A DNA stretch of 54,645 bases from a virus. The stretch lies in IMG/VR virus record IMGVR_UViG_3300011923_000001; one strand, given 5' to 3'. Below are positions 2,840-49,691 of this stretch, in pieces. A program made the position numbers and the translations under genes. The notes below the pieces were generated by a model. It saw nothing but the letters and a program-made list of their open reading frames with translations, was not told the origin of the DNA and ran no database searches. Within the stretch, counting starts at the first letter, position 1. Each line of letters opens with the position of its first letter.

Positions 2840-2866
2840 CTAACCACACACTAAATAGGTTATCCA

Positions 2867-32090: not shown

Positions 32091-32102
32091 GGGAGATTGA
32101 TT

Positions 32103-33965
32103 ATGTCTATTGACTGGGGACAAGTGGCCGCATCTGCGGGGCTAGGTGTACTGAATGGATTTCAGGTTAATAAGCAGGAACAAAAAGAAAATGAACAACG
32201 GCAATATGATCGCGCACGACAAGATGAAGCAGACAGACAAAAGCTTGAATTACACAATCAAGCCGTCAAGCAAAACGATCAAACTCTTGCGACGAATACT
32301 CGCGCTATGGCCGAGCAGCAGCGACGAGAAAGCTTAAACAAGAAAATTGGGTTATATCAGCAATATCAACAAAATGGTGATCTTGAATCAGCTGCAAAGC
32401 TTTATGTAGATAATGCTAATCAGGATAACGTAGGGAATCCGAATTTTAATCCTAACCATGCTTTGGCTTATTCAATTGATCCAGCAACCAATTCAGTGAC
32501 TATAAATCTGGTGGATAAAAACACTGGTGCAATCGTTAAAGAAGCCCGAAAGGGAGTAGGGTTTAATGATTTTATAGGTGCGACCTACCAACAAATTGAC
32601 CCTGTAGGGTCTTATGGTACACAAATTGCTTCAGCAGCAGAACAAGCCAAAGAGGATCGTAAGAACAAGTGGGAAGCTCAAAAAATGTCGCTTCAAGCTG
32701 CTTTCGACAATGATCGTGACAACAACAAGTTCAAGAATGAACTGGGTTTAGAGCAGTTTAAATTTGGCAATAATTTGTCACTTGAGCAATTGCGACAACA
32801 GGGTGCTACTGAGCGTACAGTGATCGGGCAAGAAGGACAGAATTACCGGGCAGAAAACACACCCAACGGTAAGACCAGTAAAGCGGTTCAAAGTGGTGTA
32901 CAGGGTGCAATTCAGTTTGCTAAATCTAATGCCCCGATGATGTCATTTCTTCAGAATGATCCGAATCTCTATATTAAAACTATGGGGATGATGGCGATTG
33001 AAAGCGCAGGCCAGAATGTTGATAGCTATAACGGCACAAGCACTGGCCACATGCAGCTTAATAAACGATACGCTCAAAGCTTTGCTAAACAGTATGGTAT
33101 CGATGGCAATCCTTTAACCGATCCACAAGCCAATATTATGACTGGTGCTGCTCATATCAAGGCTTTAGATAAAAAATACGGAGGTGACAGCAGTTTAATT
33201 GCAGCTTCATATAATCTTGGTGAGCCAGTTGTAGACGCGGCCTTAAAACAATGGAACAAGAATGGGCAAAAAGGCGGTTGGTTTGATTATGTTGCTTCAA
33301 ATCCAAATGTAAGCCAAGCCGCTAAAACAGAGGCTTATAATCACATTCTTAAATACAATGAAGCTTTAGGAATGCTTGGGAACAATCAGTTTTTGGACAG
33401 TACTAAAGCGGCAGCAACGACCCAATTTGGAAAAACGGTTAATTCAAGCGTAGATACTGTCGCTCAGACAGTTGCCAAAGAACTTGGTGAAAAATCCGTT
33501 GCCAAGATTAAAGGAGGGTTTTCAGGAACCCAACAGCTTGTAAGCCAGTTTACACGTGGTAAATCTACTCAAGATAGAGCCAATGCCTTCAATGCAATTA
33601 ACTCGGTCGTTTTAAACACCCTTAAAACAACTGAAAGCGGAATGACCATGACACCTCAACAGCTTAATAATTATGCCTACAACATATCGGCTCAATTAGT
33701 GGGGGCTTCTTCATTGGCTGAAGCAGGCCAGTGGATTAATGAACCCAAGCAAACGGCACAACGTCAGACTGAGGCCAATAAACCTAAAGCGACTATGTCA
33801 GGCGGGGATATTGATAAAATAATGTCTGATGTGGGGGATAGTGGGAATACACAGAGAGGTAAATCCAATAGTGTTGAAAATCCGTTCATGACTCAAGGCA
33901 TTAAGTCTGTTCTTCAGGATAAATCTGGTACGAACACACCAGATTATCTATTCAAAAAGTTGTAA
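32103..33965 (+). CDS. Internal virion protein with a lytic transglycosylase (SLT) domain
   Basis: MMAIESAGQ (catalytic Glu-Ser), GHMQLN and AASYNLGE motifs near 32990-33230. ATG 32103 is preceded by gggag. Confidence 0.7.
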   Translation: MSIDWGQVAASAGLGVLNGFQVNKQEQKENEQRQYDRARQDEADRQKLELHNQAVKQNDQTLATNTRAMAEQQRRESLNKKIGLYQQYQQNGDLESAAKLYVDNANQDNVGNPNFNPNHALAYSIDPATNSVTINLVDKNTGAIVKEARKGVGFNDFIGATYQQIDPVGSYGTQIASAAEQAKEDRKNKWEAQKMSLQAAFDNDRDNNKFKNELGLEQFKFGNNLSLEQLRQQGATERTVIGQEGQNYRAENTPNGKTSKAVQSGVQGAIQFAKSNAPMMSFLQNDPNLYIKTMGMMAIESAGQNVDSYNGTSTGHMQLNKRYAQSFAKQYGIDGNPLTDPQANIMTGAAHIKALDKKYGGDSSLIAASYNLGEPVVDAALKQWNKNGQKGGWFDYVASNPNVSQAAKTEAYNHILKYNEALGMLGNNQFLDSTKAAATTQFGKTVNSSVDTVAQTVAKELGEKSVAKIKGGFSGTQQLVSQFTRGKSTQDRANAFNAINSVVLNTLKTTESGMTMTPQQLNNYAYNISAQLVGASSLAEAGQWINEPKQTAQRQTEANKPKATMSGGDIDKIMSDVGDSGNTQRGKSNSVENPFMTQGIKSVLQDKSGTNTPDYLFKKL

Positions 33966-33990
33966 AAAAGGCGCTTTAAGCGCCTTTTTT
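33964..33990. terminator. Bidirectional terminator between convergent genes
   Basis: aaaaaaggcgc...gcgcctttttt. Confidence 0.75.
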
Positions 33991-34771
33991 ATTCGATATT
34001 TACATCTTTTTCAATCAAATTTCCATTTCGATCTATCTTAATATGCATCTTGTTGCCGTTGAAATCTTCAATATAATTTTTAAGTGATTGTGGCGTTCCA
34101 ACTTTAAAATCATTCACCTGATAAATAATATCATCCCTTAAAATATCACTATTAAAAGCAGGGGAATTGTCTACCACTCTTGCAACGTAAGCACCAGAAT
34201 TGCTTTGCCTTCTTTTTTTATCAGCTTCAGGCACATCACCAAAACTAATGCCCAATTTCACTTTTTCTTTTTTTAGAAATACTGCGGCATGATCACTGTA
34301 TTGGGTATTTACAGGAACATTTACGATACTAGAACCATAAGTGTTCACGGTTGCATTGGTATTGTAGTTTGCATAGGTGTTGTAATTGGTACGAACATTC
34401 GTATTAGCATTGATTTGACTTGAACTTATATTTGGCACAGATAAAGCATAAGAGCCTGTTTCAGTCCGTGAATATACAGATCGGACTAATACTAAGTCTG
34501 CACCAACAGCTTTAGCTTGGCTCATTATATCTTTTTGACTGGCTTTATCAGTACGGCCATTAAACTGAGATATGCCTAGAACAGAATAACCTTTGCGAAT
34601 CAAGCTGTCCGTGTCAACAGACAGATTAGCAGAGTTTTGAATCGCTACTTGATGGCCAGTTGTATGAGCATCACTATTTACCTTGCCGTTGTAGTAAGTG
34701 TTGTATGGGTTACTTGTACATCCAAACAGACCTGAAGCAATAACAATAAAAATAAAATAAGTCTTGTTCAT
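33989..34771 (-). CDS. Lipoprotein with a C-terminal PDZ-like domain (260 aa)
   Basis: Signal peptide with lipobox ASGLFGC. The C-terminus GAYVARVVDNSPAFNSDILRDDIIYQVNDFKV is PDZ-like. RBS aaagg. Confidence 0.6.
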   Translation of the reverse strand: MNKTYFIFIVIASGLFGCTSNPYNTYYNGKVNSDAHTTGHQVAIQNSANLSVDTDSLIRKGYSVLGISQFNGRTDKASQKDIMSQAKAVGADLVLVRSVYSRTETGSYALSVPNISSSQINANTNVRTNYNTYANYNTNATVNTYGSSIVNVPVNTQYSDHAAVFLKKEKVKLGISFGDVPEADKKRRQSNSGAYVARVVDNSPAFNSDILRDDIIYQVNDFKVGTPQSLKNYIEDFNGNKMHIKIDRNGNLIEKDVNIE

Positions 34772-34783
34772 ATAGCGCCTTTA

Positions 34784-35095
34784 TTATTGTGAAGAATTTA
34801 GTTTAAAAACCATACAAGTGTTGAAAATAAAGGCCATTAATAGCCCTGAACCAATGGATTTAAATAAGTAATTAACTAGAAAATTTTCGTAGGGGTTATT
34901 CAAGGTCACAAGATCGGACGACCGCATAGCAATAGCGAGCCAATTTAAACCCAATAATATAAGTACGCAGGCCAGAAACCAGACAACGCTTAGAGCTTGA
35001 CGTTGGTTTACTGACCAGTTCTGGACTGGAAAACTATTCTTTACATACCGTCCAGCAAATGCAGAAACCAAACCTAAAACCACCAAAACAAGCAT
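34784..35095 (-). CDS. Small multi-pass membrane protein (103 aa)
   Basis: Three hydrophobic helices and RBS aggaa. Co-oriented with the lipoprotein gene, 12 nt apart. Confidence 0.5.
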   Translation of the reverse strand: MLVLVVLGLVSAFAGRYVKNSFPVQNWSVNQRQALSVVWFLACVLILLGLNWLAIAMRSSDLVTLNNPYENFLVNYLFKSIGSGLLMAFIFNTCMVFKLNSSQ

Positions 35096-35227: not shown

Positions 35228-38200
35228 GTGAATCCTGAACAATTTTTCAATAGCTTCTTAAACGATGCTGTAGATAAAGGCTTAAAACCAAACCAAGTAT
35301 TTAATGAACGAGAGCGTATTTGGCGAGAAAACATTCAGCCCGCATTAGTCAAAAAAGGGGCTAATGAAACCGATCTAACCAATGCTATGAAGCGTTGGCA
35401 AGAGAAAACCAATGCACCCATGATGCAGCTTGGTTTCTTGCCTAAAGATGGTCAAAACTCACGTGGAGCAGCCAAAGACTTACGTGCAGAACGCGCTGTA
35501 CGTGAATCTGTTAAAACAGGCAGCAAACTACCTCTTATCAAAGAAACAGCTCTTTCTACTGCTGACACGCTTGCCAATGCCTTTGGTCAGGGCGCAAACA
35601 ATATGGTTGGTAGTATTGCCCGATTTGCAAACGATATTGGAGAAAATGAAAAAGGCACTACGCTTGATCGTATAGCGAACTCGTCAGATTCTACAGCCAA
35701 AGCTTTTGGCAAATCTGCTTCAAGTCAACAAACAGCGATGCAAAGTGGCGAAATGGGTAAAGCCGCACAGCTTGGAATAGGGGCAGTTCAATCAATTCCA
35801 GCTATGGCGCTTCCAATGGGAGCCGCAGCGGGAACAACTAAAGTTTTAGGTGGCATAGCAAAAACCGCAGCACCTTATTTTGGTTTAGGTGTGGGTACTA
35901 TCGCTGGACACACTCAAAACTATGGTGAAGTGCGTCAGGGCGCAACACAAAATCTACAGCAAGATTTTCCGACATGGCAGGAACTTCAGGGCAACCCATT
36001 ATATGAACAAAAATTTAATGAAAATCTGAATGCGGGTTTATCGGTAGATCAATCCCGACAAAAGGCCCATGCCGATACATTAGATACACTTTCTGAAAGT
36101 GCTGCTGATAAGTACGGCACAGCGATGACCGCACTAGACATTATCGCGCCAAGTGGCGCGGTATTGGGTTCTGGTATTTTAAAGAAAATTCCTAATTCAA
36201 CTATTGGCAATATCATTGCTGGCGGTAAAGTAAATCAAAAGCTGGTTCAACAAGAGTTAAAAGCAGCCGAACGCACAGGTATTTCGAAATATCTACCTGA
36301 TGTCAGTCTTGAAGCAAATAAAGCGGCTTTAAAAATGGTTGGCAAACAAGGCTTGGAGGAAGGCTTACAAGGTGCAATTGGTGAATATGGCTCACAATCG
36401 GCCAGTGCAAATATTGGCGGCAAGCCGATCGATTGGAAACAAGTAGGGCAATCTTTTATAGATGAAGGAATTGTCGGGGCTATCATGGGCGGCGGTATGC
36501 AATCCGCTTCAGGCCATACGCCGACTGGCCAAGCCAAAGCCATAGCAAAAGAACTTCGCAACCAGACCAATGCACTTCGTAAAGATGAAGCTTTAGCGCG
36601 AAATAATTTATCTGAAGCCATGCAGTTTAATAACCCTGAACGTGTCGCTGAAGCTGAAAACGATCTACAACTGATTCAGGAACGTGCTAAGAATCTTCAT
36701 GATGGTTATACACAATTTGGTATAGACACACCTTATTTCGTTCAACGACTGATACCTAAAGATCAAGAACCTGGTACAAATCAGGATCAACAAACTCAAT
36801 TACAACAAGCTCAACCTGAAGACTTACCAGAACCAGCACCAACGCAAGAACCTATTGCTGAACAAGCACCAGCACAGCCAAGCTTTAAACCAGCAGGATA
36901 TGATATGGCCGACACAACCAACTTGGTTGTTAAGGCTGTAAGTGACGGTGTTTTAAGTCTTGATCAAGCCGAAAAGATACAGCGCGACCCAGTTGCGGGT
37001 GCTGTGTTTGGTCATGCCATAAATGGCGATAAAGCTTCAGCACAACAAACCATTATGGATGCTATATCCAATGGAGTTATTGATTTACCACAAGCCGAGT
37101 CACTTTCTAAAGATATAGACGTATTTGCAAATTTGCATAGCCAAATGCCTGAAAGCGAAGTTGCAGCACCATTAGAGCCAGTTAAACCAACTTTAACAAG
37201 CATTGTGAATAACCACGTTAAAGAACAGGTTAATGCTGGTATGAATCAGCCTGAATTGAATGATTTTGGTTATACACCACAGGGATTAAGTCCAGCACAG
37301 CCTGATCCAAACCTAAGCACTTTCGACTCTATAGAACCGCAATTTATTCAGCAAGAACAGTCTGGGATAATTGACAGCAATGCGCCACAAGAACAAAACA
37401 TTGAAGCACCAGTTGATTACAACCAACTTCAGCCAGATCAACAGCAGTTTGAAACAGGCAATCAAGCACCAGAAAATCAAAACCCAACAGCACCAACAGA
37501 GCAAGGAGATAATCCTCTATTTTCTGGACAACCACCTGATTTAAATCAAAGCTTTGCCGAAAAATTCCGTGATGCACATCTTAATCATCCTGAATTAAAG
37601 CCAAAATTAATTAATGATGAGATAGCTTTAGGTCGAAATCGGGCAGAAGTGCTTAAAGAGGTGAATAGCCTTGTTGCTGATATGCCGAAACAACCTAAGG
37701 CTAAAACTGAAAACATACCTATTTCTGAGCCAGAGATTAAGTCTTTTAGCAATTCAGCTAAGGCCAGCGAATATATTCGGAAAAATAATTTATCTGAAAC
37801 CCATGAACCAATATCCAATGATGGACTTTTTGAGGTTCGTCCAAAAGCAGAACCAGAAAAATTAGAAATTGAGCAAAATTCACCCAAAAACGGCACAACA
37901 GATTTAAATCAAGGAGATATGGGTCGAGCCAGTGACAATAAGCCTTTTGCAAATCAACAATCAGCTAGTCTAGCATTAAATAAAAAGGGTTTAACTAAAA
38001 CTCATTTTGTGCATAAAACTGAAGGCGGTTATGTTTTACGTCCAACAAGCGAAAATGAACCCCAAGATATTGCCAAACAATCTACCACTTTCCCTTTGGA
38101 TAAAGTTAAGCAGGCATTTAGCCATGCCCATTTATCGCCAGCGAATACAGCGCGTTCCATGAAGGAGAGTTTTGACCGTTTTATTCAATCTGAAGTAGAT

Positions 38201-41200
38201 CAATCAGAACATTTAATTGAAAACAACGACCAACAAAAAGCTTTTGATGATGCAATTTCTGATCTTGAGCATAAATATATTAATGAGTGGCTACCACCAT
38301 TATTAAATGCCGCAAGTAGTACAGTTAGTTCTGCTGTCGCTGGTCGTAATAACTTCAACAGTAAACAGGCAAATCAGCGGGGAAATACCTTAGACAGAGC
38401 CATGAAAAATTTTGATGATTCTATTCAGAGATTCACAGGCCAAACGAAATCTAAAGTCCTTGCAGCACGTACACCTGAACAAAAACAACGTGATCTTGAT
38501 GCAGATAATGCAAAAAAGGAACAGGAAAAACTAAAAGAAGTGAAAAAGGCTGAAGAAGCTGCTTTGACTTCAAAACAAGGACAAAAAAGAACACGAGTTA
38601 GCAATGCTGATGTTCCTGACCGATCAAAAGCCATTGAAATGACGATGGAGGAATGGAAGAAAAAATCAAAAGATTATAAATCAACTAATCTTGGTGTCCG
38701 CATGGCTATGGCTTTAAATAAGGAAACTGGTGCAACAGAGCTTAGACCTGTTTGGATCACTGATGAGGAACCTGCAAAAAATAAAACCAATGTTTTAAAT
38801 GTAAATAAGGGCGATAAAATTACAATTCCAAAAACTAAGGATGCTTTAGGGAAGATTCGCCCCTCCGAAACACTAACTGTTTCTGGCCTAGATGGTAATG
38901 ATTTAACCTTGACAACTGAGTCGGGTGCTAGAACCATTGAAAGTGCAAAACTCTTAAAACAACGATATGGCGATAAACTTTCAATATTAAAGAATGACGA
39001 TAGTTCTACATCCAATATTGATGCAGCAGCCAACGAAGCAGCAACTAGCCCAAAAAATAATACACCTGAACCGACTCAGGCACAGATAGAAGCAGGCAAT
39101 TATAAAAAAGGCCACGTAAATATTCAGGGCTTGAATATCTCCATTGAGAACCCGAAAGGTTCTATACGATCAGGACAACGTCCCGATGGCTCAGAATGGT
39201 CACATACCATGAGTGATCATTACGGTTATCTGAAGCGAACTACTGGCGCAGATAACGAGCATATTGATACTTACATTGGTGAACACCCTGACTCAAGTCA
39301 AGTATTCATTGTTGATCAAATCGATCAGCAAACAGGTGATTTTGATGAACATAAAGTCATGCTTGGATTCAATGATTTAGACAGTGCTACGCAAGCATAT
39401 AAATCAAATTTTGATAAAGGCTGGAAGGTTGGCCCTATTCGCGTTATGAACGTGGATGAGTTTAAAAACTGGTTAAAACATGAAGATACAACCCAACCAA
39501 CAGTACAAGATGAACCGAAATCATACGATCAGATTAAATCTAATTTCGATGATCTATCTAAACGTCTGGATGAGGGTGATCCTGATTTAAAAATTGAAGA
39601 TATTCGCTCAACTTATAAAGACATGCTTGAACACTATGACAATATTGTGAATGACCTATCAAGCAAAACAAAACCAACACTTCTGGCTGGTATGAATCCT
39701 TACTATCAGGCGCGATATAAATCAGAAAATAAACCTGTCATTGTAAAGCATCTAGCTGACAATACTTTCATGCGGATGAACTTTCTCGATGGAGGTATGA
39801 TTTCTTACTCTTATGGAGAAAAACGTACACTGCCTGAAATCTTGCGCGATAAATTAAACGATGCAACACAGGAGGATTTGAATAAATTTCTTGACCAGCA
39901 ACGTCAGGAACGTGAACAGTATAAACGTGATATTACGGCCGCAGTTGATGGACTACAAAACCCGCATACATTAGAGGACTTTGCTCGCATTTCCCGTGTA
40001 AACGAACATAAAGATTTTAAGTCATTTTATTCAAGTCTGTCTGAACCACAGCAGGCACTTTATGACGAGCTAAAATCTCAATCTAACAATGAGAAACGGT
40101 TACAGGAAGCTGAACGCAACAAGGCTGCACAAGCTTTAAATAGCACAGCTATAAACGGCAACACCAGCGCCACAATCTACAAAGGCAAGCACACCAAAAA
40201 AGGCCATGATATTTGGACAGTTTCATTAAACGATCGTATCGAAAAGGATGATTTTGATTCTTATCGTAATGAAGCTAAAGCACTTGGCGGCTACTACTCA
40301 TCATATCGAGGTGGTGGATCAATACCCGGCTTTATTTTTGATAGTGAATCTTCCGCGACAGAGTATCTAAATCTTATTTCTGGCCATTCTGCTGAAAATT
40401 CTGATATTGAAACAACGGCCATTACAGATTTTGATCAGGAAGCTGAAGCGGTAGAAACGGATGCCAATAAACAAGCTGAGAAATTAAAAGATAAGGCACA
40501 AAAAATCATAGATCGTGGAAATGAAAGCCTCAATCGTGATCGTAAGGCCAATACCAACAAACGAGCTAGTGAAGCGGCCAGAGCAGAGCAACAGGCCAAT
40601 CATGAAGTGTTTCTCGGCGAAACCATGAACCGTATTGCTGATGGTATTGAATCTGGAACTGTGAAATATCTTTCTCGCTTAAATGCTGTTTCTCAATTGC
40701 GTAATATTGAAAGCCTATTGCAGCAGGCTTCAAATGAACAGCAACGTGAAACAAAAGCCAAAGAACGTGAAGTTAATGCCTCAACAGTGGCTTATTCTGA
40801 ATATCCTCAGTATAAGACTTGGATTGACCATTTTTATGATGTTTTACGTGATTTGCGTGAGATTAAACCAAGTCTAGCCAAACGACTCGATAGTGCTATT
40901 GATGCCCGATTGAAACAGGCTTATGGCGTATGGCTCAATGAAAAGAATAGTTTTGGAACAGAAAATTATTTAAGCGTTACGGCTCGTACGAGTGATGGCC
41001 AACCCGCTATATTCAAGACCAGTATTTCAAAGGCCGAAAAAGTCGCTAAAGCGGCCAATGCCAAGACTGATCAACCAAAATTCGAAGTTTTTAAAATTAA
41101 GAATGGTGAATATGCCGTCATCGATAACCATTCAAGCGCATCTGAGAGTGGTAAGTGGACACCAACACGCAATGACCAGCAATTAAATCTAAGCAATAAC

Positions 41201-44200
41201 TTTGGCCATGAAATCTACAATGCCTTGAAGCAGCACCAGAAGAAATCACCAAAATACTATATCAACTGGCAGATAGAATCCATGCATGAACAAGTATCCC
41301 GCATGGAAAAACTAGGCATTCACGATCCAGCCACGTATAGAGCCATGTTGCGTGAATATATAGGGTTACGCGGTAAAGAGAAAGCTAACGACCCTATTAA
41401 GGCTTTAGAGCGTTCGATGGTTGGGCGATCAAATGATGGTTTAGATTTTTTCCCAACACCACGCAACGTGGTTGAAGAAATGATAGAACTGGCTCAACTT
41501 AGTCCAGATATGAAAGTCTTAGAACCAAGTGCAGGCATGGGGCATATTGCTGACATATTAAAAGACTATGGTATTCAACCTGATGTTATTGAATTATCAG
41601 GTAAGCGCCAAGAACTTTTAGAGTTAAAAGGCCATAATATTGTAGGTAATGACTTCTTACTCTTTAACCCTGAAGAAAGCCAGCATTATGACCGCATCAT
41701 TATGAACCCGCCATTTAGTGATCGCAGGGATGCAGAGCATATCTACCATGCATTTGATCTTTTAAAAGATGATGGTGTGCTTGTGGCCATTGCTGGTGAA
41801 GGTGTGTTTTTTGGAAATGATAAAAAGGCTAAGGAGTTCCAAGCATGGCTAGAACATACCAATGCTGAAATAACACCATTGGATGCTGGTACATTTAACG
41901 ATCCGAGTTTACCAGTAACAACTGGTGTTAAGGCAAGAATTATTAAAGTTTCAAAATCTAATACCTTGAATAAACAATTTAGCCGTCATGAGCCAATAGA
42001 TCAGGGTAATACTGAAGAAAATGTTCGTTCCGCTTTGATGGATCACTTTGGCAAAGGTGTTATAGAAAGTCTTGAGCAAAAAGGCATTTTAACGATCATT
42101 CCAACACATTCAGACAAAAGTGTAGAGGGCTGGTATCAGGATGGTCATGTTACCTTAGTCGCTGATCAACTTACCAGTCAGACAGCCGTACCAACATTAC
42201 TGCATGAGTTGGGAGGACATGGCGGTTTTCAGTCCATGATGAGTGAAACAGCGTATGCCGACATTATGGCAAACGTAGATCGGCTAATAGAAGGGAAAAA
42301 CTTTATAGCTACTGAAGCCAAACGACGAGCTTCAGTAGAATCCGACCCAGCGGTTCAGCGAGATGAGCTACTTCCTTATTTGCTTTCAGTGGCCAGTGAA
42401 ATGCAGGGAGTGACTGGCTCACCATATCTGGCTGTAAATCGTATCATTGCGCGTATCACAAGTGCTGTTAAAGCATGGCTGAAGAACAAGTACGATCTTA
42501 ACTTTAAAATAAGCCCTGATGAAATGATTGCCATTGCTGAACGTATGATTAAGCAAACTGCTAAGTCGAACACCAGTCCTTTAGCTGATCATAATCGTCA
42601 ATATTCATTGAATGAGGCGGCTAACTCTGCTTTCAATAAAGCTATTGATCATGTTGTTAATGGTGTTACTCCAAAGCAATTTATTAGAATGGGTAAAACA
42701 CCTGACGTTTTGAAAATGGTCGGAATGCCCGATGCCCTAATCACGATTCACGGTCGCACGATTGAGAAAGTAATGGGTGAACATTTAGGTGTTGAGCAAG
42801 GTGATCATAGTCATCTACACAATCTAACACCAGAGTCGCTACGACAATTACCGAAACAAATCAACGATCCTATTGCTGTATTCAAATCGGCTGAATCTGC
42901 CACAAAAGATGGATACGTGGTTTTAACTGAATTAAGGGAAATTGATTCCATAAAAGGCAATAGCAAGCCTGTCGTAGCAGCATTGCATGTTAAAGCATCC
43001 AAATCGGATATTGAAATCATTAATGTCGTAAGTGTTTACGGTCGATCAAAGTCGCAGTTACAGCGCGCTTTGAATAATGACTTATTATATTGGAATAAAG
43101 AAAAAGGCCAGCTATTTCTGGATACCGACGGGCTTCAATTGCCACAGGAATTACACACAGAAAATACTGACCTTTCTAAAACCAATATTAAAACAAACGA
43201 GGATTTAGTCAAGTATCGTGAAGTAAACAATCGTAAATTTAGCCGAAAAGCTACGGCTGATCCTGAAAATTTACCTGAATCGACACAACAGAAAATTATA
43301 GATGCCGCGAGTCAATCGTTTTTTGGCCAAGCCGCACTATTAGGGCTTGAAAAGTCAAAAACCATTACGAAACAAACAGGCCGTTTATTTAGCACTATGC
43401 TTCATAAAGCCCTTCAGGATCGTGATTTTAAAGTGACGTTTGATTTAGTACAGGACAAAATCAATCATGTCACCTTTGCTTCTTCTGCTTCAATGGATGT
43501 TGCGCCAGATATTTTGACTCAATTAGAAACTGGATCAGACTATTGGAAGGAAAGTAAGAAGGTGGGCCAACAGTTAGCGCACACTCTCAATTTACGTGAC
43601 AAGCCAGAATTTCAGAAGGATTTAGAAACCGTTGGTGATGTTCTTTTTGAAAATACCTTATCTGAAGAACCAAAAGTTTTTAATGATCAGGAACTACGTG
43701 ACAAAAAACTGACACAAAACCAGATTGATTTATATCATCAAACTAGGGCTGCAATTGATACTTCACTTGACTCATTTGCCAAAACAACGATTTCCAATAT
43801 CTATAAACATTTGGGTGGCAAGTCAGATGACATTTTAGCAATTACAGCAATGGATCTCACTTTGGGTGGCCATGTGAATGAAATTGCTGATCGTATGGCC
43901 AAGATCGTTGAAAATGATCCTGATAAAGCTGAAGCGGCCAAAGTTGCTGAGGAACACATTGAGAAGGTCGTAACACGGCTTGAGCAATTAAAAAACGAAG
44001 GCTATATGCCACTAATGCGCTTTGGTAAGTATTACATGCGTGTTATTGATCCTACGACTAAAGAGGTTGCTTATCGTCAACACTTTGAAAGTGAAGCTGA
44101 ACGAAATTTATTTGTTCGCAACTACAAAGCCCCTGAAGGCTACAAAGTTGAATCATCCCAAATCAACGAGCTTGAACATAAACTCTTTCAGGGTGTAAGT

Positions 44201-46048
44201 CCTGAAACTGTGGCTTTATTTGCTAAAGAAGCGGGGTTGCCAGTAGGTGATGCTGAAGCGGCATATATCAAACATGCAGTACGTGATAACCATGCACTTA
44301 AACGCCTTCTAAGACGACAAGGGGTACAAGGGTTCAATACCGATACAAAACGTGTTCTGGCTGCATTTGTACTATCTAATGCGCGTTATGCAGCGAATCA
44401 GCTTTACAACCCAGCCATTGACGAATCGATTACTGAAATTAAAGACCCTGCTTATGCTGAAGATGCGATTCGTTTACGTGATTATGCGCTTGATACTCAG
44501 GAAGAAGTGGCGGGCATCAAAAATTTCGCGTTCGTATGGTACATGGGGGCATCGTTTATGTTTGGTGTTGTCAACTTGACGCAGCCATTATTACAAACAT
44601 TGCCTTATCTACTTCAGTATAGTACCGATGCTGGATCAGTACCACGTGCTTTTATACGTGCTGCTAAATCATGGTACGGCAAAGACATTCCAACGAAATA
44701 TCAAGACTTTTATGAACGTGCAAGACGTGAAGGGCATCTTGACCCACAAAACACATGGATGCTTCAGGGGCTTGAGCGTGGTAAATCTGGCTTAGGCGCA
44801 AGTACATGGCAACTAATTAGCCATGCTTCAGGCTTCTTTGCTCAAGCTTCTGAAACGGTCAACCGAAGAACAGCACTATTTGCAGCTTTGGATATTGCTG
44901 AAAACATGGGTAAAGCCAAGCTTGAAAAATTAGGTTTTAAAGATGCCTATGACTTTGCTGTGCGAACAATTCAGGAAACACAGGGCGTTTACAACAAAGG
45001 CAACCGTCCACGTGTATCTCGTGGCAATGTCGGTTCACTACTCATGATGTATAAGCAATTCATGATTTCATACGTTGAACAGATGGTTCGTATGCAACGG
45101 AGTGGTTTGTGGGGCGGTGAAGATGATGAGTTTAAAAAACGCATGGCTGCTCTGGTTGGCTTTGGTATATCCAGAACAATGCTTGTCGCTCTAGGTGTGC
45201 TTTGGTCATTTGCTGGGGCTACAGGCTTGCCATTTGTACGTGATTTACTTGATGTGATCGAAACTGCGGGTGGCATGATTGGAAAACCTGTAAATACTGA
45301 ACGCGAAGCACAAATTGCTTTGACTAAAGCTTTAGGTGATACGTTGGGTACGGCCGCAACGACCATTCTTTTAGATGGGCCAGTAAATTTAAATCCTGTG
45401 ATCGATGTTAAAGGGCGCATGGGTATGGGCGATTTAATCCCAGCAACCGCCTATTTTAGCCCAATGACCAGTGAATGGCAGAAATCAAAAGAGTTATCTG
45501 GTTTGGGCGGTGCAATTGGTGGACTTATGGAAAAGGCCAGTTCAGCAATGGATTACGCACAAATTGGAGCTTACGGCCAAGCTGCTACTCAACTCGCGCC
45601 AAAAGCATTTACAAGTCTTGGTCAAGGTGCTGTGGCTGCTGCAACTGGCGATTATCGTAATATGCAGACTGGCGTTAAAACCAATGATGCCACCATCCTT
45701 GATGGCTTCATTAAAATGCTGGATGCACAGCCTTCAGGTATTGCAAAAGAAGGCCGCATACGTGGCCTAGAAATGAAGGATAAAGCCGCGCTTCAGTATG
45801 TTAATAAACGAGCCAAAGAGGACTATAACAAAGTTCTGGAAAGCGGTGATCAGAAACAAATCATTGAGTTCCGTAAAGCTATTGAAGTCTACAATGCAAC
45901 CGATCCGCGCTATCCAATCACGATGAACCTTAAACGTGCTGAAACCAACTTTGCTAAATCTAAACAGAACTGGCAAGAGAAGCGTAAGACAACGAAAGGG
46001 TTAGACTGGATGGATGACTACAATCCATATTTGGAGACTGAGCAATGA
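35228..46048 (+). CDS. Giant polyvalent virion/ejection protein (3606 aa, GTG start)
   Basis: One uninterrupted ORF containing P/Q-rich linkers, a pyrophosphatase-like domain, a SAM-dependent N6-adenine MTase domain (VLEPSAGMG, NPPF), a PLMRFG motif and C-terminal hydrophobic helices. Confidence 0.8.
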   Translation: MNPEQFFNSFLNDAVDKGLKPNQVFNERERIWRENIQPALVKKGANETDLTNAMKRWQEKTNAPMMQLGFLPKDGQNSRGAAKDLRAERAVRESVKTGSKLPLIKETALSTADTLANAFGQGANNMVGSIARFANDIGENEKGTTLDRIANSSDSTAKAFGKSASSQQTAMQSGEMGKAAQLGIGAVQSIPAMALPMGAAAGTTKVLGGIAKTAAPYFGLGVGTIAGHTQNYGEVRQGATQNLQQDFPTWQELQGNPLYEQKFNENLNAGLSVDQSRQKAHADTLDTLSESAADKYGTAMTALDIIAPSGAVLGSGILKKIPNSTIGNIIAGGKVNQKLVQQELKAAERTGISKYLPDVSLEANKAALKMVGKQGLEEGLQGAIGEYGSQSASANIGGKPIDWKQVGQSFIDEGIVGAIMGGGMQSASGHTPTGQAKAIAKELRNQTNALRKDEALARNNLSEAMQFNNPERVAEAENDLQLIQERAKNLHDGYTQFGIDTPYFVQRLIPKDQEPGTNQDQQTQLQQAQPEDLPEPAPTQEPIAEQAPAQPSFKPAGYDMADTTNLVVKAVSDGVLSLDQAEKIQRDPVAGAVFGHAINGDKASAQQTIMDAISNGVIDLPQAESLSKDIDVFANLHSQMPESEVAAPLEPVKPTLTSIVNNHVKEQVNAGMNQPELNDFGYTPQGLSPAQPDPNLSTFDSIEPQFIQQEQSGIIDSNAPQEQNIEAPVDYNQLQPDQQQFETGNQAPENQNPTAPTEQGDNPLFSGQPPDLNQSFAEKFRDAHLNHPELKPKLINDEIALGRNRAEVLKEVNSLVADMPKQPKAKTENIPISEPEIKSFSNSAKASEYIRKNNLSETHEPISNDGLFEVRPKAEPEKLEIEQNSPKNGTTDLNQGDMGRASDNKPFANQQSASLALNKKGLTKTHFVHKTEGGYVLRPTSENEPQDIAKQSTTFPLDKVKQAFSHAHLSPANTARSMKESFDRFIQSEVDQSEHLIENNDQQKAFDDAISDLEHKYINEWLPPLLNAASSTVSSAVAGRNNFNSKQANQRGNTLDRAMKNFDDSIQRFTGQTKSKVLAARTPEQKQRDLDADNAKKEQEKLKEVKKAEEAALTSKQGQKRTRVSNADVPDRSKAIEMTMEEWKKKSKDYKSTNLGVRMAMALNKETGATELRPVWITDEEPAKNKTNVLNVNKGDKITIPKTKDALGKIRPSETLTVSGLDGNDLTLTTESGARTIESAKLLKQRYGDKLSILKNDDSSTSNIDAAANEAATSPKNNTPEPTQAQIEAGNYKKGHVNIQGLNISIENPKGSIRSGQRPDGSEWSHTMSDHYGYLKRTTGADNEHIDTYIGEHPDSSQVFIVDQIDQQTGDFDEHKVMLGFNDLDSATQAYKSNFDKGWKVGPIRVMNVDEFKNWLKHEDTTQPTVQDEPKSYDQIKSNFDDLSKRLDEGDPDLKIEDIRSTYKDMLEHYDNIVNDLSSKTKPTLLAGMNPYYQARYKSENKPVIVKHLADNTFMRMNFLDGGMISYSYGEKRTLPEILRDKLNDATQEDLNKFLDQQRQEREQYKRDITAAVDGLQNPHTLEDFARISRVNEHKDFKSFYSSLSEPQQALYDELKSQSNNEKRLQEAERNKAAQALNSTAINGNTSATIYKGKHTKKGHDIWTVSLNDRIEKDDFDSYRNEAKALGGYYSSYRGGGSIPGFIFDSESSATEYLNLISGHSAENSDIETTAITDFDQEAEAVETDANKQAEKLKDKAQKIIDRGNESLNRDRKANTNKRASEAARAEQQANHEVFLGETMNRIADGIESGTVKYLSRLNAVSQLRNIESLLQQASNEQQRETKAKEREVNASTVAYSEYPQYKTWIDHFYDVLRDLREIKPSLAKRLDSAIDARLKQAYGVWLNEKNSFGTENYLSVTARTSDGQPAIFKTSISKAEKVAKAANAKTDQPKFEVFKIKNGEYAVIDNHSSASESGKWTPTRNDQQLNLSNNFGHEIYNALKQHQKKSPKYYINWQIESMHEQVSRMEKLGIHDPATYRAMLREYIGLRGKEKANDPIKALERSMVGRSNDGLDFFPTPRNVVEEMIELAQLSPDMKVLEPSAGMGHIADILKDYGIQPDVIELSGKRQELLELKGHNIVGNDFLLFNPEESQHYDRIIMNPPFSDRRDAEHIYHAFDLLKDDGVLVAIAGEGVFFGNDKKAKEFQAWLEHTNAEITPLDAGTFNDPSLPVTTGVKARIIKVSKSNTLNKQFSRHEPIDQGNTEENVRSALMDHFGKGVIESLEQKGILTIIPTHSDKSVEGWYQDGHVTLVADQLTSQTAVPTLLHELGGHGGFQSMMSETAYADIMANVDRLIEGKNFIATEAKRRASVESDPAVQRDELLPYLLSVASEMQGVTGSPYLAVNRIIARITSAVKAWLKNKYDLNFKISPDEMIAIAERMIKQTAKSNTSPLADHNRQYSLNEAANSAFNKAIDHVVNGVTPKQFIRMGKTPDVLKMVGMPDALITIHGRTIEKVMGEHLGVEQGDHSHLHNLTPESLRQLPKQINDPIAVFKSAESATKDGYVVLTELREIDSIKGNSKPVVAALHVKASKSDIEIINVVSVYGRSKSQLQRALNNDLLYWNKEKGQLFLDTDGLQLPQELHTENTDLSKTNIKTNEDLVKYREVNNRKFSRKATADPENLPESTQQKIIDAASQSFFGQAALLGLEKSKTITKQTGRLFSTMLHKALQDRDFKVTFDLVQDKINHVTFASSASMDVAPDILTQLETGSDYWKESKKVGQQLAHTLNLRDKPEFQKDLETVGDVLFENTLSEEPKVFNDQELRDKKLTQNQIDLYHQTRAAIDTSLDSFAKTTISNIYKHLGGKSDDILAITAMDLTLGGHVNEIADRMAKIVENDPDKAEAAKVAEEHIEKVVTRLEQLKNEGYMPLMRFGKYYMRVIDPTTKEVAYRQHFESEAERNLFVRNYKAPEGYKVESSQINELEHKLFQGVSPETVALFAKEAGLPVGDAEAAYIKHAVRDNHALKRLLRRQGVQGFNTDTKRVLAAFVLSNARYAANQLYNPAIDESITEIKDPAYAEDAIRLRDYALDTQEEVAGIKNFAFVWYMGASFMFGVVNLTQPLLQTLPYLLQYSTDAGSVPRAFIRAAKSWYGKDIPTKYQDFYERARREGHLDPQNTWMLQGLERGKSGLGASTWQLISHASGFFAQASETVNRRTALFAALDIAENMGKAKLEKLGFKDAYDFAVRTIQETQGVYNKGNRPRVSRGNVGSLLMMYKQFMISYVEQMVRMQRSGLWGGEDDEFKKRMAALVGFGISRTMLVALGVLWSFAGATGLPFVRDLLDVIETAGGMIGKPVNTEREAQIALTKALGDTLGTAATTILLDGPVNLNPVIDVKGRMGMGDLIPATAYFSPMTSEWQKSKELSGLGGAIGGLMEKASSAMDYAQIGAYGQAATQLAPKAFTSLGQGAVAAATGDYRNMQTGVKTNDATILDGFIKMLDAQPSGIAKEGRIRGLEMKDKAALQYVNKRAKEDYNKVLESGDQKQIIEFRKAIEVYNATDPRYPITMNLKRAETNFAKSKQNWQEKRKTTKGLDWMDDYNPYLETEQ
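39092..39482 (+). other. Inorganic-pyrophosphatase-like domain of the giant protein
   Basis: Colinear with E. coli PPase blocks as I recall them: IENPKGS, HYGYL / NYGYI, ADNEHIDTYIG / DGDPVDVLV, DFDEHKVM / GEDAKLVA, KGWKVGP / KGKWVKV. Confidence 0.45.
41447..41955 (+). other. N6-adenine DNA methyltransferase domain of the giant protein
   Basis: FFPTP, motif I VLEPSAGMGHI, motif IV IIMNPPF (NPPF at 41705-41716). Confidence 0.75.
42675..43120 (+). other. Possible PBECR-type (barnase/EndoU/RelE-like) nuclease domain of the giant protein
   Basis: Pattern ITIHGRTIEKVMGEH...LRQLPKQINDPIAVFKS...YVVLTEL...VVAALHV resembles polyvalent-protein PBECR modules as I recall them. Confidence 0.25.
44009..44026 (+). 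other. PLxRFG motif (PLMRFG) marking the C-terminal PLxRFG domain
   Basis: Codons cca cta atg cgc ttt ggt. Hydrophobic helices (FAFVWYMGASFMFGVV, LVGFGISRTMLVALGVLWSFAG) follow. Confidence 0.6.
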
Positions 46049-46146: not shown

Positions 46147-46156
46147 CAGAAAAAAT

Positions 46157-46180
46157 ACAGCCCTAATCCTTCAGGGCTGT
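46157..46180. terminator. Bidirectional hairpin between the late operon and umuC
   Basis: acagccct aatccttc agggctgt. It overlaps the umuC stop codon. Confidence 0.55.
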
Positions 46181-47484
46181 ATTTCATTTAAAACCCAGCC
46201 ATCACCTTGAATATCAAAATAATTAGGAGTCTTGTAAGACTGGCGCATCGACCACGCCCGATGATCCATATAGCTTGCCCCAAATCCTAATTTTTTCTTT
46301 CCATATAGCTTATGAATGTCTTCAATCACTTTGACTAAATTGTCAGATTTTTGATCCTGGTCTCTATCTGAAAATAAATCGTGGTTAAATGATGATTTTG
46401 GCTCTAAACCTGTTAATACAACACCGCACTTTTTGAAAGAAACACCTTCTACATATAATTTTTCGATCAGTCTAGCGGCCACACTAATAAGCCTTTGGGG
46501 ATTGTCTGTAGGCTGTTCAAACCCACAAGATAGCCCCTTTTTATAGTAAGGATTATTGGTGTCAAATGGATTCGAGGAAGCGAATACAGTCACAACACCG
46601 CATACTTGCTCACTTTTTAATAGGCGTTTTTGTGCATCATGAGTAAATCTTGTTATGGCTTCTTTTAAATCATTTACATCAGTTATCCGCTTTCCAAACG
46701 ACTTCGATGAAATGATTTGCTTTTGTGGCTCAGGATCAGTTTCAAGATCAATACAAGGCTCTCCATTCAACTCCATAACAGTTCGTTTCAAGACAACACC
46801 GAATAAACGGCCAATCATTTCTGGATTTGCTCTTTTAAGATCACCAGCCGTAACAATACCGAGTTCATTCAAGCGTTTCTTATACTGTCTGCCAACGCCC
46901 CACACTTCCGATACATCTATAATATTATAAAACCCTTCTATAGCGCCTTGATTTGCCAGCTCAATTAAATTGCATACACCATTGAAAACAGGAATTTTCT
47001 TAGCTAAGTGGTTCGCAAATTTACTTTGTGTTTTAGTGTGGCCAAGCCCAACGCAAACAGGTAGTCCAAGCCAACTATCTATTCGATCTTTAACGCTATT
47101 TGCAAACTTTGTCGGCTCATAAACTGAAGTAAAGTCTGTTAAATCAAAAAACGACTCATCTATTGAATACTGTTCAACACTATCGGGCGATAACATATCT
47201 TCAATTAGCTGGTGAAACCGCCTAGACATTTCACCGTAAACCGCATAATTACTTGATAAATAAGTGATATCCAGTTTTTGTTCTTTTATTAATTTTTCGA
47301 GTTCAAAAAATGGCATCCCCATCGGTATTTTTGCCGTTTTAGCTTCTTGCGACCGAGCTATGACGCAGCCGTCATTATTACTCAGCACTACTACAATTTT
47401 ATCATTCAGCTTAGGCTGAAAAAGCCTTTCACAGCTTACATAGCAGTTGTTTATATCAATATGGCCAATGATCTTGCGCATCAT
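46171..47484 (-). CDS. umuC: Y-family translesion DNA polymerase subunit UmuC/RumB-like
   Basis: IDINNCYVSCERLFQPKLNDKIVVVLSNNDGCVIARSQEAK is the canonical UmuC N-terminus. 437 aa. Confidence 0.9.
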   Translation of the reverse strand: MMRKIIGHIDINNCYVSCERLFQPKLNDKIVVVLSNNDGCVIARSQEAKTAKIPMGMPFFELEKLIKEQKLDITYLSSNYAVYGEMSRRFHQLIEDMLSPDSVEQYSIDESFFDLTDFTSVYEPTKFANSVKDRIDSWLGLPVCVGLGHTKTQSKFANHLAKKIPVFNGVCNLIELANQGAIEGFYNIIDVSEVWGVGRQYKKRLNELGIVTAGDLKRANPEMIGRLFGVVLKRTVMELNGEPCIDLETDPEPQKQIISSKSFGKRITDVNDLKEAITRFTHDAQKRLLKSEQVCGVVTVFASSNPFDTNNPYYKKGLSCGFEQPTDNPQRLISVAARLIEKLYVEGVSFKKCGVVLTGLEPKSSFNHDLFSDRDQDQKSDNLVKVIEDIHKLYGKKKLGFGASYMDHRAWSMRQSYKTPNYFDIQGDGWVLNEIQP

Positions 47485-47623: not shown

Positions 47624-48037
47624 TCAATCTTTAGGATCATGGCCAAGCTGTTTTAAGCGCTTATTCAGATAATCTTCTAAGGCTTCCACAACAAGCATTG
47701 TTTTATTGGTTTTCTTACCCAAAATCTTATTTTTCTTATCTTGAGCCAAAACAAAATCTAACTTAAGGCGCGTGTCCAGCGGAATGTTGTACGACTGTTT
47801 TTCTGTGACAGACTTTAATTCGTCAGGTGACATGGATACACCCTCACGCCAAGCCTTTACCTGTTCCTTATCTTCAGCCTTTTCCACTGCTGGCGTGGTT
47901 TGGTGGCTTGCTGAAGTATGTAAAGGTGCTTGTTCAATAATCTTTTGCTGTTCAGGACTTATTTGTGAAACAGACACCGATTCAGCAGCTTCTCTATTTC
48001 GACGAGGTAATACAGCACCCTTCTCATTATTTGACAT
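47624..48037 (-). CDS. Partition adaptor, ParG/RHH-like centromere-binding protein (137 aa)
   Basis: Directly downstream of and overlapping parA, with strong RBS gaggaa. Disordered N-terminus and C-terminal KTMLVVEALEDYL. Confidence 0.5.
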   Translation of the reverse strand: MSNNEKGAVLPRRNREAAESVSVSQISPEQQKIIEQAPLHTSASHQTTPAVEKAEDKEQVKAWREGVSMSPDELKSVTEKQSYNIPLDTRLKLDFVLAQDKKNKILGKKTNKTMLVVEALEDYLNKRLKQLGHDPKD

Positions 48038-48689
48038 TGTAAATTTCCTCAAACAGTTTCATGAACTCTGCCTGTGCTGTTTCCACATAGCGTTTATCGC
48101 GTGAAACTGGTGATTCATACTCTGTTAAACCTTTATAGGCATCAAATGCACGGCTATACCATGTCCGATCCCCTAAAGTAACTGCTACTGGCTCAATGAT
48201 TGGATCATCTATGATTTCCTGAATGGCCCGGTTTAATTCAGGGGTTGAGCCAATATGCGGTGCAGCAGTTACCACTCCATAGACTTTAGGTTTGGATTCA
48301 CGTGTTTTGCTAATTTCTGCGATAAGGTCTGAAGTGTTACGAAACCCCTCAATATTACTATTTGCACCAATCCGCAATGGCACAAGAATCACATCGGCTA
48401 AAAGCATAGCTGTACGCAGCTCAGTATTATCATAACCGCCCGCATCGATTACCACTTCATCATACTCGTTTGCTGCTGAACTAATCTCATTTAAAATATC
48501 ACCAGAAAGGTAATAAAACTTTCCATCTTGTTCTGTTCGTTGACTACTCCATAGTGATGAAGCAGCTTTGTTAGCCGAATCAAGATCAATGCCTATTACA
48601 GCTTTAGTTTTGGCAAGTTCTGCAAGAATAGATGTAGCAAGTGATGTTTTTCCAACACCACCTTTAGAATTGGCAATAAGTAAGATCAT
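48027..48689 (-). CDS. parA: ParA partition ATPase (start 48689 or 48701)
   Basis: Deviant Walker A LLIANSKGGVGKTS. Size and operon context fit. Confidence 0.85.
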   Translation of the reverse strand: MILLIANSKGGVGKTSLATSILAELAKTKAVIGIDLDSANKAASSLWSSQRTEQDGKFYYLSGDILNEISSAANEYDEVVIDAGGYDNTELRTAMLLADVILVPLRIGANSNIEGFRNTSDLIAEISKTRESKPKVYGVVTAAPHIGSTPELNRAIQEIIDDPIIEPVAVTLGDRTWYSRAFDAYKGLTEYESPVSRDKRYVETAQAEFMKLFEEIYNVK

Positions 48690-48753
48690 ATAATTATCCA
48701 TGTTTATTAGTGTGTAGCCACACAATAATACTAACAGCTAACCATTAATTCAA

Positions 48754-48847: not shown

Positions 48848-49441
48848 CTATTGATTTAATTTAGAAACAGCTTCTTTTAATAAATTAGGGTCTGTAGCGA
48901 AATACTTCTGAGTTGTTGAAATTGAAGAATGCCCCATAAGTTCTTTAATAGAATAAATATCAACATTATTTCTAATTAGTCTGGTTGCAAAAGCACGTCT
49001 ACCACTATGAGAAGTTGCTTCAATATTTGCTTTTGAATAGCAAATCTTTATCATTTTTCTCATTGTGTCTTGCGTAAATGCCCCGCCTTTCTGTGATAAA
49101 AATAAAGGAGCATTCATGTCATCTAACTGTCGGTGATTCATTATGTAATCATATAAATACTGTCTCGCTTCAGCATTCACAAGATAAACTTCACGGAATT
49201 TACTACCTTTGGTGTACTGGGCCAGCAGCCGTATTGTTTCTTTTATTTCATATCTGGCTGGATCAAAAACATCACGAATTGTTAGAGCAGCCATTTCCTT
49301 AGCTCGCAGGCCAAGAAAGTGAGAAAAGTACAAAACGCAGATATTCCGTAGATTATGCCGATCCTTCTCCCAGATCATATCTAATGTATGGGTAAACTCT
49401 GAAACAGATACAAATGGGGCAACCCCTGTTTTTTTAGCCAT
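48848..49441 (-). CDS. Tyrosine recombinase (XerC/D-like; likely multimer resolution)
   Basis: Catalytic residues LGLRAKE (R), HSGRRAFAT (HxxR) and LMGHSSISTTQKY (H, Y). Start set at ATG 49441, preceded by agaggg. Confidence 0.85.
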   Translation of the reverse strand: MAKKTGVAPFVSVSEFTHTLDMIWEKDRHNLRNICVLYFSHFLGLRAKEMAALTIRDVFDPARYEIKETIRLLAQYTKGSKFREVYLVNAEARQYLYDYIMNHRQLDDMNAPLFLSQKGGAFTQDTMRKMIKICYSKANIEATSHSGRRAFATRLIRNNVDIYSIKELMGHSSISTTQKYFATDPNLLKEAVSKLNQ

Positions 49442-49518
49442 ACAAAACCCTCTATTTATATTTTCATGGAATAGGTGATTATCCATGACGTATAATTTTG
49501 AGAGTATTATAAAAACAA

Positions 49519-49550
49519 AAATGTCCGAAAAGATACATTTTCGGACATTT
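49519..49550. promoter_or_regulatory. 13-6-13 perfect inverted repeat: candidate recombinase core site and/or minus-strand terminator
   Basis: aaatgtccgaaaa gataca ttttcggacattt. On the minus strand it is followed by ttttgttttt and a TATAAT-like box. Confidence 0.5.
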
Positions 49551-49691
49551 CTGTTAGAGCTTTGAAACTTCACCTTAGATTACGCTTTTTGCCCACCTAA
49601 CCTATGACCAAAATAGGAGAGCAGGGCAATGATACATCATTAAAAAAATAAATAAAAACACTTCTTGAAAATATAATTATATTTACATTTT

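Follow-up and report, generated by a model that had tools for sequence, protein, structure and literature searches.

What is a protein of 3,606 amino acids (aa) for, when its gene takes up one-fifth of a phage genome? The question is raised by the IMG/VR virus record IMGVR_UViG_3300011923_000001, a stretch of DNA of 54,645 nucleotides (nt) that was analysed at its full length and is hereafter called the window. Nucleotides 1–113 are repeated at positions 54533–54645, and the window therefore represents a circular genome of about 54.5 kb, of which one giant open reading frame (ORF) occupies 19.8%. The element is probably a temperate podovirus-type phage-plasmid of Acinetobacter. The sequence of the giant protein places it in the polyvalent-protein class and in the PLxRFG family, as a homologue of the giant proteins of the F116 group of Pseudomonas podophages. 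Our favoured reading, which we consider probable, is that it is packaged in the phage head and ejected at infection, with its C-terminal region taking part in crossing the envelope and its cargo enzymes arriving first in the cytoplasm.

One uninterrupted and constrained gene

The giant ORF begins with a GTG codon, 8 bases downstream of its ribosome-binding site, and continues without an in-frame stop across 10.8 kb of DNA with a GC content of approximately 40%. A single uninterrupted ORF of 2,915–4,770 aa is likewise present in 15 full-length relatives, namely five loci from IMG/VR contigs and one Acinetobacter lwoffii genome (L005–L009) and ten database representatives. Two further relatives, L010 and L011, are truncated at an end and keep the frame open for more than 4,270 aa. 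All of these share N-terminal and C-terminal blocks with the window protein, at overall identities of 22–62%, and L005–L009 also share its GTG-encoded ‘VNxxQxF’ beginning. In comparison with L001, the closest relative, the C-terminal block differs by 0.045, 0.017 and 0.189 at codon positions 1, 2 and 3, and the N-terminal block by 0.136, 0.104 and 0.41; the third-position excess in the C-terminal block indicates purifying selection on the reading frame. The giant ORF is a real, single, constrained gene, neither a chance ORF nor a fusion artefact. A preliminary description of this DNA, made from the sequence alone, had reported one ORF of 10.8 kb filling about 20% of the genome, and that account stands.

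The same description had named a sequencing frameshift, concealing several genes, as a finding that would overturn it. An assembly or sequencing artefact that joins at least two genes could be suspected from F116, where the annotation shows two genes (p59 and p60), and from L001 and L002, each of which has two ORFs. In L002 (positions 2996–3030), the gene is divided by a single additional A in an A-run, GTAAAAAATT, within the 38-aa module described below, and the next frame continues the module (…KIAPSQFVLREK), which points to a broken single gene; the split stems from either a sequencing error in the homopolymer or a true frameshift mutation. In L001 (positions 14404–14413), the two halves overlap at a stop/start junction, ATGGGTTTAA, the second ORF lying in the −1 frame. 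Other members are continuous there, and no relative aligns across the junction itself. L001 seems to carry the gene naturally as two, like F116. We rejected −1 frameshifting at this junction (GGGTTTA) as unsupported, on account of that missing alignment and of a heptamer that is out of slippery register. For the window, the uninterrupted relatives, together with the single 3,787-aa coding sequence (CDS) of phage phiC725A and the stop-free 10.8 kb, speak against an artefactual fusion, an explanation to which we assign almost no weight.

A conserved C-terminal PLxRFG region

The protein ends in a conserved block containing a PLxRFG domain with hydrophobic helices, as had been proposed. The match to NF032893 scores 272.4 bits against a cut-off of 100 and spans profile positions 2–663 of 681. 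The R, F and G of the PLxRFG motif are invariant or nearly so in an alignment of 51 sequences, and the stronger of two hydrophobic segments is long enough for one or two membrane-spanning helices (Table 1). The block is 65–82% identical in the IMG/VR loci L005–L008 and, over aa 2625–3606, 94.5% identical to that of L001. An AlphaFold2 (AF2) model of aa 2800–3606 is mostly helical, with a predicted local distance difference test (pLDDT) score of 79. A search of BFVD with this model brought up the C-terminal ends of many giant polyvalent proteins of phages, with E values of 1e-38 to 1e-10. Weak matches, with E values of 1e-6 to 5e-4, are to proteins annotated as ‘Internal virion protein D’ (IVP-D) in Roseobacter phages CRP-4 and CRP-5, Vibrio phage ICP2 and Salinivibrio phage CW02; those to CRP-4 and CRP-5 have E values of 3–5e-5 and TM scores of 0.34–0.37.

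By tblastn, the C-terminal region is 29% identical over approximately 806 aa to F116 p60 and to the phiC725A CDS (E about 1e-72). An extended T7 IVP-D family has been described that includes the N4 gp50 C-terminus as well as proteins of BcepMigl, F116, H66 and VT2-Sakai, among which H66 gp60 was deposited under the description of a structural protein (Hardies et al. 2016, PMC4819975).

Cargo enzymes and a candidate peptidase

The preliminary description listed a pyrophosphatase-like domain, a SAM/NPPF adenine methyltransferase and a possible PBECR-type nuclease module, and allowed that profile searches might fail to support them. All three, like the PLxRFG domain, are matched by profiles. The first is the InPase domain, matched over its full length (profile positions 1–135 of 135; 187 bits against a cut-off of 26.8). 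Over approximately 129 aa, it also aligns, with most positions conserved, with the C-terminus of a portal protein in PDB entry 9b41 (E = 5.7e-27). Chain L of that entry is the portal gp19 of myophage Pa193, with InPase at its C-terminal end (residues 636–761); the paper on the structure built the portal only for residues 94–528, and the portal-borne InPase is thus not modelled. On the backbone described below, InPase is seen only in the window protein and L001 and in none of 12 representatives surveyed for cargo, so that the earlier suggestion of a possibly new domain combination holds in a modest sense.

The methyltransferase core, which depends on S-adenosylmethionine (SAM), follows a conserved block without a PDB or Pfam match. 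It matches methyltransferase families in PHROG (4e-30 and 1.6e-19) and the PADLOC families mad2 (1.6e-18) and MTase_II (1.5e-8), and its profile matches methyltransferases in the PDB down to 4e-5. Only approximately 190 aa long and with no recognisable target-recognition domain, it could be a low-specificity adenine methyltransferase. In L006 and L007, a 56-aa insertion stands immediately before the NPPF motif.

The third enzyme-like domain, MuF_C, scores 82.9 bits against a Pfam gathering cut-off of 27.6. MuF-C has been placed in the PBECR clade of predicted RNases (Iyer et al. 2017, PMC5512222), and the possible PBECR module noted earlier is therefore the MuF_C domain. Residues H2531, S2554, H2587 and S2602 are conserved in 17–19 of 20 homologues (H2531 in 19, S2602 in 17). 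The catalytic residues of the PBECR clade are a histidine close to the N-terminal helix plus a serine or threonine in strand 4, and the Mu F copy is reportedly inactive (Iyer et al. 2017, PMC5512222). H2531 and S2602 are of the kind so described, and MuF_C is a predicted RNase here. Its AF2 model has one helix followed by four strands.

A fourth domain, absent from the earlier list, carries the motif HELGGH and belongs to the conserved backbone. The motif and a downstream glutamate, E2380, show no variation among 8 and among 12 relatives, and the AF2 model (pLDDT 89) has three strands, after which comes a kinked helix bearing the motif. Zincin-like metallopeptidases with HEXXH or HEXXXH motifs, serving in processing, are common but non-obligatory in polyvalent proteins (Iyer et al. 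2017, PMC5512222). The region may be such a zincin-type peptidase, for which it is a candidate that fits the HEXXXH variant.

Searches of ten sub-segments against Pfam at E values up to 10 gave no additional domain, and no helicase family was matched in Pfam. Pfam and PDB searches leave about half of the protein without an assignable fold (aa 1–505, 960–1270, 1432–2050 and 2630–2920).

Comparison with described giant phage proteins

InPase, methyltransferases of the N6-adenine type and MuF_C/PBECR are hallmarks of phage polyvalent proteins (Iyer et al. 2017, PMC5512222). The window protein combines unrelated effector domains (InPase, methyltransferase and MuF_C) in one ORF, with phage virion genes alongside in the virion-gene half of a podophage genome, and two of its families, PF18823 and PF18819, are polyvalent-defined; the polyvalent architecture claimed for it earlier is supported. 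Its relatives in the same clade carry further hallmark cargo (ART-PolyVal, ddrB-ParB, LPD1/3/5/23/37/39 and an Eco57I-type methyltransferase with SNF2).

The nearest described relatives are in F116-like Pseudomonas podophages (Hollowayvirus): H66 gp60, the phiC725A CDS and the F116 pair. These giants are of similar size, belong to temperate podophages and are encoded by one gene or two. They are homologous at aa ~1400–2243, which covers the conserved block and the NPPF methyltransferase (31–34% identity), and in the PLxRFG region at aa 2804–3568 (29% identity). By contrast, the N-terminal ~1,250 aa of the window protein are unrelated to theirs, save for a weak match at aa 955–1104, and no InPase, HELGGH-block or MuF_C match with the window protein was seen in phiC725A or F116. 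Their giant gene directly follows same-strand CDSs of the virion module and is itself followed by lysis genes.

The preliminary comparison with Bcep22-like phages (Lessievirus) was apt. Their ‘DarB-like’ giants (Bcep22 gp75 and JC1 gp69) also fill about one-fifth of the genome and lie among podophage virion genes, two small minus-strand genes adjoin the giant gene, and PHROG 10089 matches the window protein at aa 1257–1765. The cargo is different, sequence similarity is seen only through PHROG profiles, and in JC1 the minus-strand pair comes after the giant gene, whereas in the window it comes before. JC1 gp69, with 4,515 aa and 22% of its genome, was found in virions, with 51 unique peptides by mass spectrometry (PMC9144972), and the Bcep22-like giants, that of BcepMigl included, fall in the same F116-group IVP-D set (Hardies et al. 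2016, PMC4819975).

The giant protein of Stx phages (phi24B gp47, 2,811 aa, with homologues in 933W and VT2-Sakai) is also polyvalent and has MuF-C, with LPD5, LPD1 and LPD38 in place of InPase and methyltransferase and a different N-terminus. It was detected in virions, is invisible in the cryo-EM map and has been proposed to be an ejection protein. PHROG 616, to which phi24B gp47 may belong, has a 2,793-aa profile of comparable size and matches aa 2308–2662 of the window protein, which hold the HELGGH and MuF_C domains.

The earlier comparison with DarB of P1, a myovirus, is looser. DarB is a head-packaged antirestriction protein with an N6-adenine methyltransferase, and in this respect it offers a functional model for the methyltransferase cargo. 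A helicase domain is also part of DarB, and a PLxRFG region is not. Lacking a helicase, the window protein is not a DarB orthologue, although some relatives, L010 and L011, have SNF2 together with a methyltransferase. T7 gp16 (IVP-D) and the N4 virion RNA polymerase (vRNAP) gp50 are likewise large, mostly helical, ejected podophage proteins, and in N4 gp50 an enzyme that works inside the cell is coupled to an IVP-D-like C-terminus (Hardies et al. 2016, PMC4819975). They differ in that the SLT domain is on a separate protein in the window and the window protein has no RNA polymerase.

Packaging and ejection weighed against the alternatives

The virion-gene neighbourhood, the F116-group homology and the analogues in JC1 and phi24B virions favour a protein that is packaged in the head and ejected. 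As we picture it, the protein would lie inside the head of a temperate Acinetobacter podophage and would leave at infection through the short tail, before the DNA or along with it. A conduit through the envelope would be built or crossed with the help of the helical C-terminal region and its hydrophobic helices, as proposed for IVP-D of the T7 gp16 type and for the C-terminus of N4 gp50. Ejection would bring the enzymatic domains to the cytoplasm first. There, the methyltransferase may blunt restriction, by analogy with P1 DarB; InPase may remove pyrophosphate or a nucleotide signal; the PBECR domain may cut or bind RNA; and the HELGGH domain may cleave the polyprotein into functional parts. 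The suggested roles in restriction, pyrophosphate or nucleotide metabolism and RNA follow Iyer et al. 2017 (PMC5512222).

Several results weigh against this picture or its parts. A Foldseek search of the PLxRFG model against the PDB, T7 gp16 entries included, gave no significant match, and sequence and profile searches with the PLxRFG alignment against the PDB gave nothing or chance matches only. With hhalign, the alignment matched T7 gp16 at a probability of 1.4% and a seven-sequence gp16 profile at 0.4%, neither of them significant; this is a direct comparison, whereas the published link between IVP-D and T7 gp16 needed bridging families. For want of a significant gp16 profile match or a PDB fold match, the link to T7 gp16 comes from the literature and the weak BFVD matches. 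For the HELGGH domain, neither sequence and profile searches nor Foldseek gave a significant PDB match or recovered the zincin fold, so the zincin stays a candidate. Every Pfam methyltransferase match falls under its curated cut-off, and a Foldseek search of the MuF_C model against the PDB did not recover the BECR fold. Finally, a terminator-like hairpin and a minus-strand cassette set the giant gene apart from the other virion genes, and its co-expression with the late genes is therefore an assumption. On this point the preliminary description was wrong, having placed the giant ORF directly after the internal-virion and SLT proteins: the hairpin and two minus-strand genes intervene.

The lack of significant similarity in the direct tests against T7 gp16 agrees with another explanation, in which the protein is packaged cargo and not part of a conduit. 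The PLxRFG region would then target the protein to the head or bind the scaffold, and other proteins would form the channel, such as the 557-aa, 257-aa and 622-aa (SLT) products of the separate ejection-type genes upstream. A precedent exists in the C-terminal part of N4 vRNAP, the MPTase-containing region of which is required for encapsidation (Iyer et al. 2017, PMC5512222), and the protein would travel with the DNA as P1 DarB does. We regard this as unlikely, given the strong hydrophobic helices in the PLxRFG region and the weak fold matches to annotated IVP-D proteins; moreover, each podophage group has an IVP-D or a P22 gp16-type protein, and this domain is the IVP-D of the F116 group (Hardies et al. 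2016, PMC4819975).

The isolation of the gene bears on a further alternative, that the protein is not packaged at all and is a cytoplasmic protein of the late phase or of lysogeny and plasmid maintenance, which might, for instance, methylate progeny or plasmid DNA and modulate host nucleotides in the phage-plasmid state. The gene has its own transcription unit, set off by the hairpin and the divergent cassette, and plasmid-type maintenance genes adjoin it. We find this distinctly improbable: homologous or analogous giants are in JC1 and phi24B virions, H66 gp60 is deposited as structural, the InPase and MuF_C families are described as associated with phage virions, and the gene shares strand and neighbourhood with virion genes. 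Packaging with ejection, including a C-terminal role at the envelope, thus remains the reading that we favour.

A constant backbone with swapped cargo

The window protein belongs to a clade of Acinetobacter giant proteins, of 2,915–4,770 aa among full-length members, that share a fixed backbone: an N-terminal domain of approximately 500 aa, linkers in which a 38-aa module occurs one to five times, the HELGGH domain and the C-terminal PLxRFG region of about 940 aa. The N-terminal domain has moderately hydrophobic segments, rich in glycine and alanine, at aa 182–200 and 300–318. It is 51–93% identical in seven relatives and is carried by 8 of the 23 tested representatives that have the 38-aa module. 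Sequence and profile searches found no Pfam or PDB similarity for it, hhalign comparisons with T7 gp15 and with the N-terminal 1,354 aa of phiC725A were not significant, and tblastn of the N-terminal 1,199 aa against phage records gave no match. A word-index homology search with the N-terminal 1,250 aa returned only two proteins and understated the family, which was later recovered by scans of the loci and a profile search. An apparent hhalign match of one alignment was discarded as an artefact of a ParB-like segment in full-length giant proteins that is absent from the window protein.

The P/Q-rich linkers and the duplicated small module of the preliminary description are both present. Proline and glutamine make up as much as 48% and 40% of the two linkers, compared with 10% of the whole protein. 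Between the linkers lies an internal short pair, DGVLSLDQAEKIQRD and NGVIDLPQAESLSKD, approximately 42 aa apart (window 36974–37129, aa 583–634). The duplicated unit is the 38-aa module, present in every relative; the end of copy 1 is the end of the conserved N-terminal block (aa 872–876) in five relatives. When a profile of the module was run against 1.84 billion representative proteins, no more than 25 matched, the majority of them 2,000–4,770 aa long, and 12 of the 23 new ones that were tested have a PLxRFG C-terminus.

Two cargo slots are variable. In the window protein, slot 1 holds InPase, the conserved block and the NPPF methyltransferase, and slot 2 holds MuF_C/PBECR. L001 is 99% identical to the window protein over aa 2800–3606 and 78% over the N-terminal 958 aa, and lacks window aa 959–1261 and 1476–2624. 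L006 has ART-PolyVal at the position of MuF_C, and L010 and L011 have an Eco57I-type methyltransferase and an SNF2 helicase. Ten further families of polyvalent type occur across 12 representatives, the cargo of which includes MuF_C (5), Eco57I (4), SNF2/helicase (3–4), LPD1 (2) and single instances of LPD3, LPD5, LPD23, LPD37, LPD39, ddrB-ParB and N6_Mtase. Block boundaries recur at window aa 872–876, ~1235, 1405–1429, 2249–2259, 2444–2466 and 2669–2670; at 1405–1429, 2249–2259 and 2669–2670, homology blocks resume.

A more speculative proposal, which we put forward as a long shot, is that the clade is a cassette system for injected anti-defence enzymes. The modules and the HELGGH domain would mark points of cleavage or exchange, the polyprotein would be cut into effectors after ejection, blocks would be swapped between near-identical phage-plasmids, and InPase might act on a nucleotide immune signal and not on pyrophosphate. 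What is new here is the clade-specific N-terminal domain, the 38-aa module, which in this survey occurs almost only in such giants, and the union of InPase, methyltransferase and MuF_C on this backbone. All three vary a theme already described and do not amount to a new type of system.

Genome setting

The giant gene is on the same strand as the upstream genes for terminase, portal, major capsid, tail fibre, ‘internal virion protein’, ‘DNA ejection’ and SLT proteins. The tail fibre or tail tip gene (25677–29543, 1,288 aa) has mosaic PHROG matches to many different tail-protein families; its homologue in L001 has 1,147 aa and carries Phage_Tail_Tip. The hairpin downstream of the SLT gene probably terminates transcription in both directions. 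The arrangement of the two minus-strand ORFs before the giant gene is identical in L001, and an AT-rich gap of 132 nt separates them from the giant gene. The smaller ORF encodes a hydrophobic N-terminus, and the pair could be a moron or superinfection-exclusion cassette.

Signs of a phage-plasmid are the circular genome, the genes for ParA, a replication initiator, a tyrosine recombinase, a UmuC-like polymerase and a CI-type repressor (Table 1), and relatives on stand-alone contigs of about genome size. The related loci are on stand-alone contigs of Acinetobacter lwoffii, of 57–64 kb, and in a ‘Ca. A. avistercoris’ metagenome-assembled genome (MAG); the host is Acinetobacter. DNA searches for near-identity in phage and plasmid collections, with the giant gene and with both halves of the window, found none.

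Table 1 Features of the giant gene, its protein and the surrounding genes. Positions are those of the window.
Feature	Position (nt)	Strand	Residues (aa)	Remarks
CI-type repressor	1186–1962	−
SLT-containing gene	32097–33965	+	622 in total
13-bp hairpin	33963–33991			flanking A/T runs; between SLT gene and minus-strand cassette
Two minus-strand ORFs	33989–35095	−
PDZ-domain protein	33989–34771	−	260 in total
Small ORF	34784–35095	−	103 in total
Giant ORF	35228–46048	+	3,606 in total	GTG start; AGAGGA ribosome-binding site; ~400 kDa
N-terminal domain	35228–36742	+	1 to ~505	clade-specific
P/Q-rich linker 1	36689–36934	+	488–569
P/Q-rich linker 2	37235–37567	+	670–780
38-aa module, copy 1	37733–37846	+	836–873
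38-aa module, copy 2	37931–38044	+	902–939
K/E-rich block	38105–39037	+	960–1270	probably coiled-coil; common to L005–L007, weakly phiC725A
InPase, type I pyrophosphatase-like	39077–39478	+	1284–1417	PF18823; Pfam E = 1.6e-55
Conserved block before methyltransferase	39521–41377	+	1432–2050	common to L006–L008 and F116-like phages
SAM-dependent methyltransferase core	41420–41977	+	~2065–2250	motifs FFPTP, VLEPSAGMG, NPPF
NPPF motif	41705–41716	+	2160–2163
HELGGH (HEXXXH) domain	42005–42577	+	~2260–2450	candidate zincin-like metallopeptidase
HELGGH motif	42203–42220	+	2326–2331
MuF_C, PBECR clade of predicted RNases	42803–43111	+	2526–2628	PF18819; Pfam E = 2e-23
Conserved C-terminal block	43235–46045	+	2670–3606	~940 aa
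PLxRFG domain	44000–45955	+	2925–3576	NF032893; E = 8.5e-81
PLMRFG motif	44009–44026	+	2928–2933
Hydrophobic helix in PLxRFG domain	44516–44581	+	3097–3118
Strongest hydrophobic stretch	45146–45238	+	3307–3337
15-bp hairpin	46152–46185			~100 nt past giant-gene stop codon; common to convergent UmuC-like gene
UmuC-like Y-family polymerase	46171–47484	−
Small partner ORF of UmuC-like polymerase	47624–48052	−
ParA	48027–48725	−
Short tyrosine recombinase	48848–49573	−	240 in total
Replication initiator	50801–51961	+

Implications

Giant polyvalent proteins make up one-fifth of some phage genomes, and almost nothing about them has been tested. For annotation, the analysis corrects labels attached to this family, such as ‘methyltransferase’, ‘tail’ and ‘internal virion polymerase’. 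With a backbone that stays constant (78–99% identical between genomes) and cargo that varies, the Acinetobacter clade amounts to a clean experiment set up by nature. With it, PLxRFG could be tested as a membrane conduit and HELGGH as a processor of the polyprotein, and one could ask which injected enzymes defeat which host defences.

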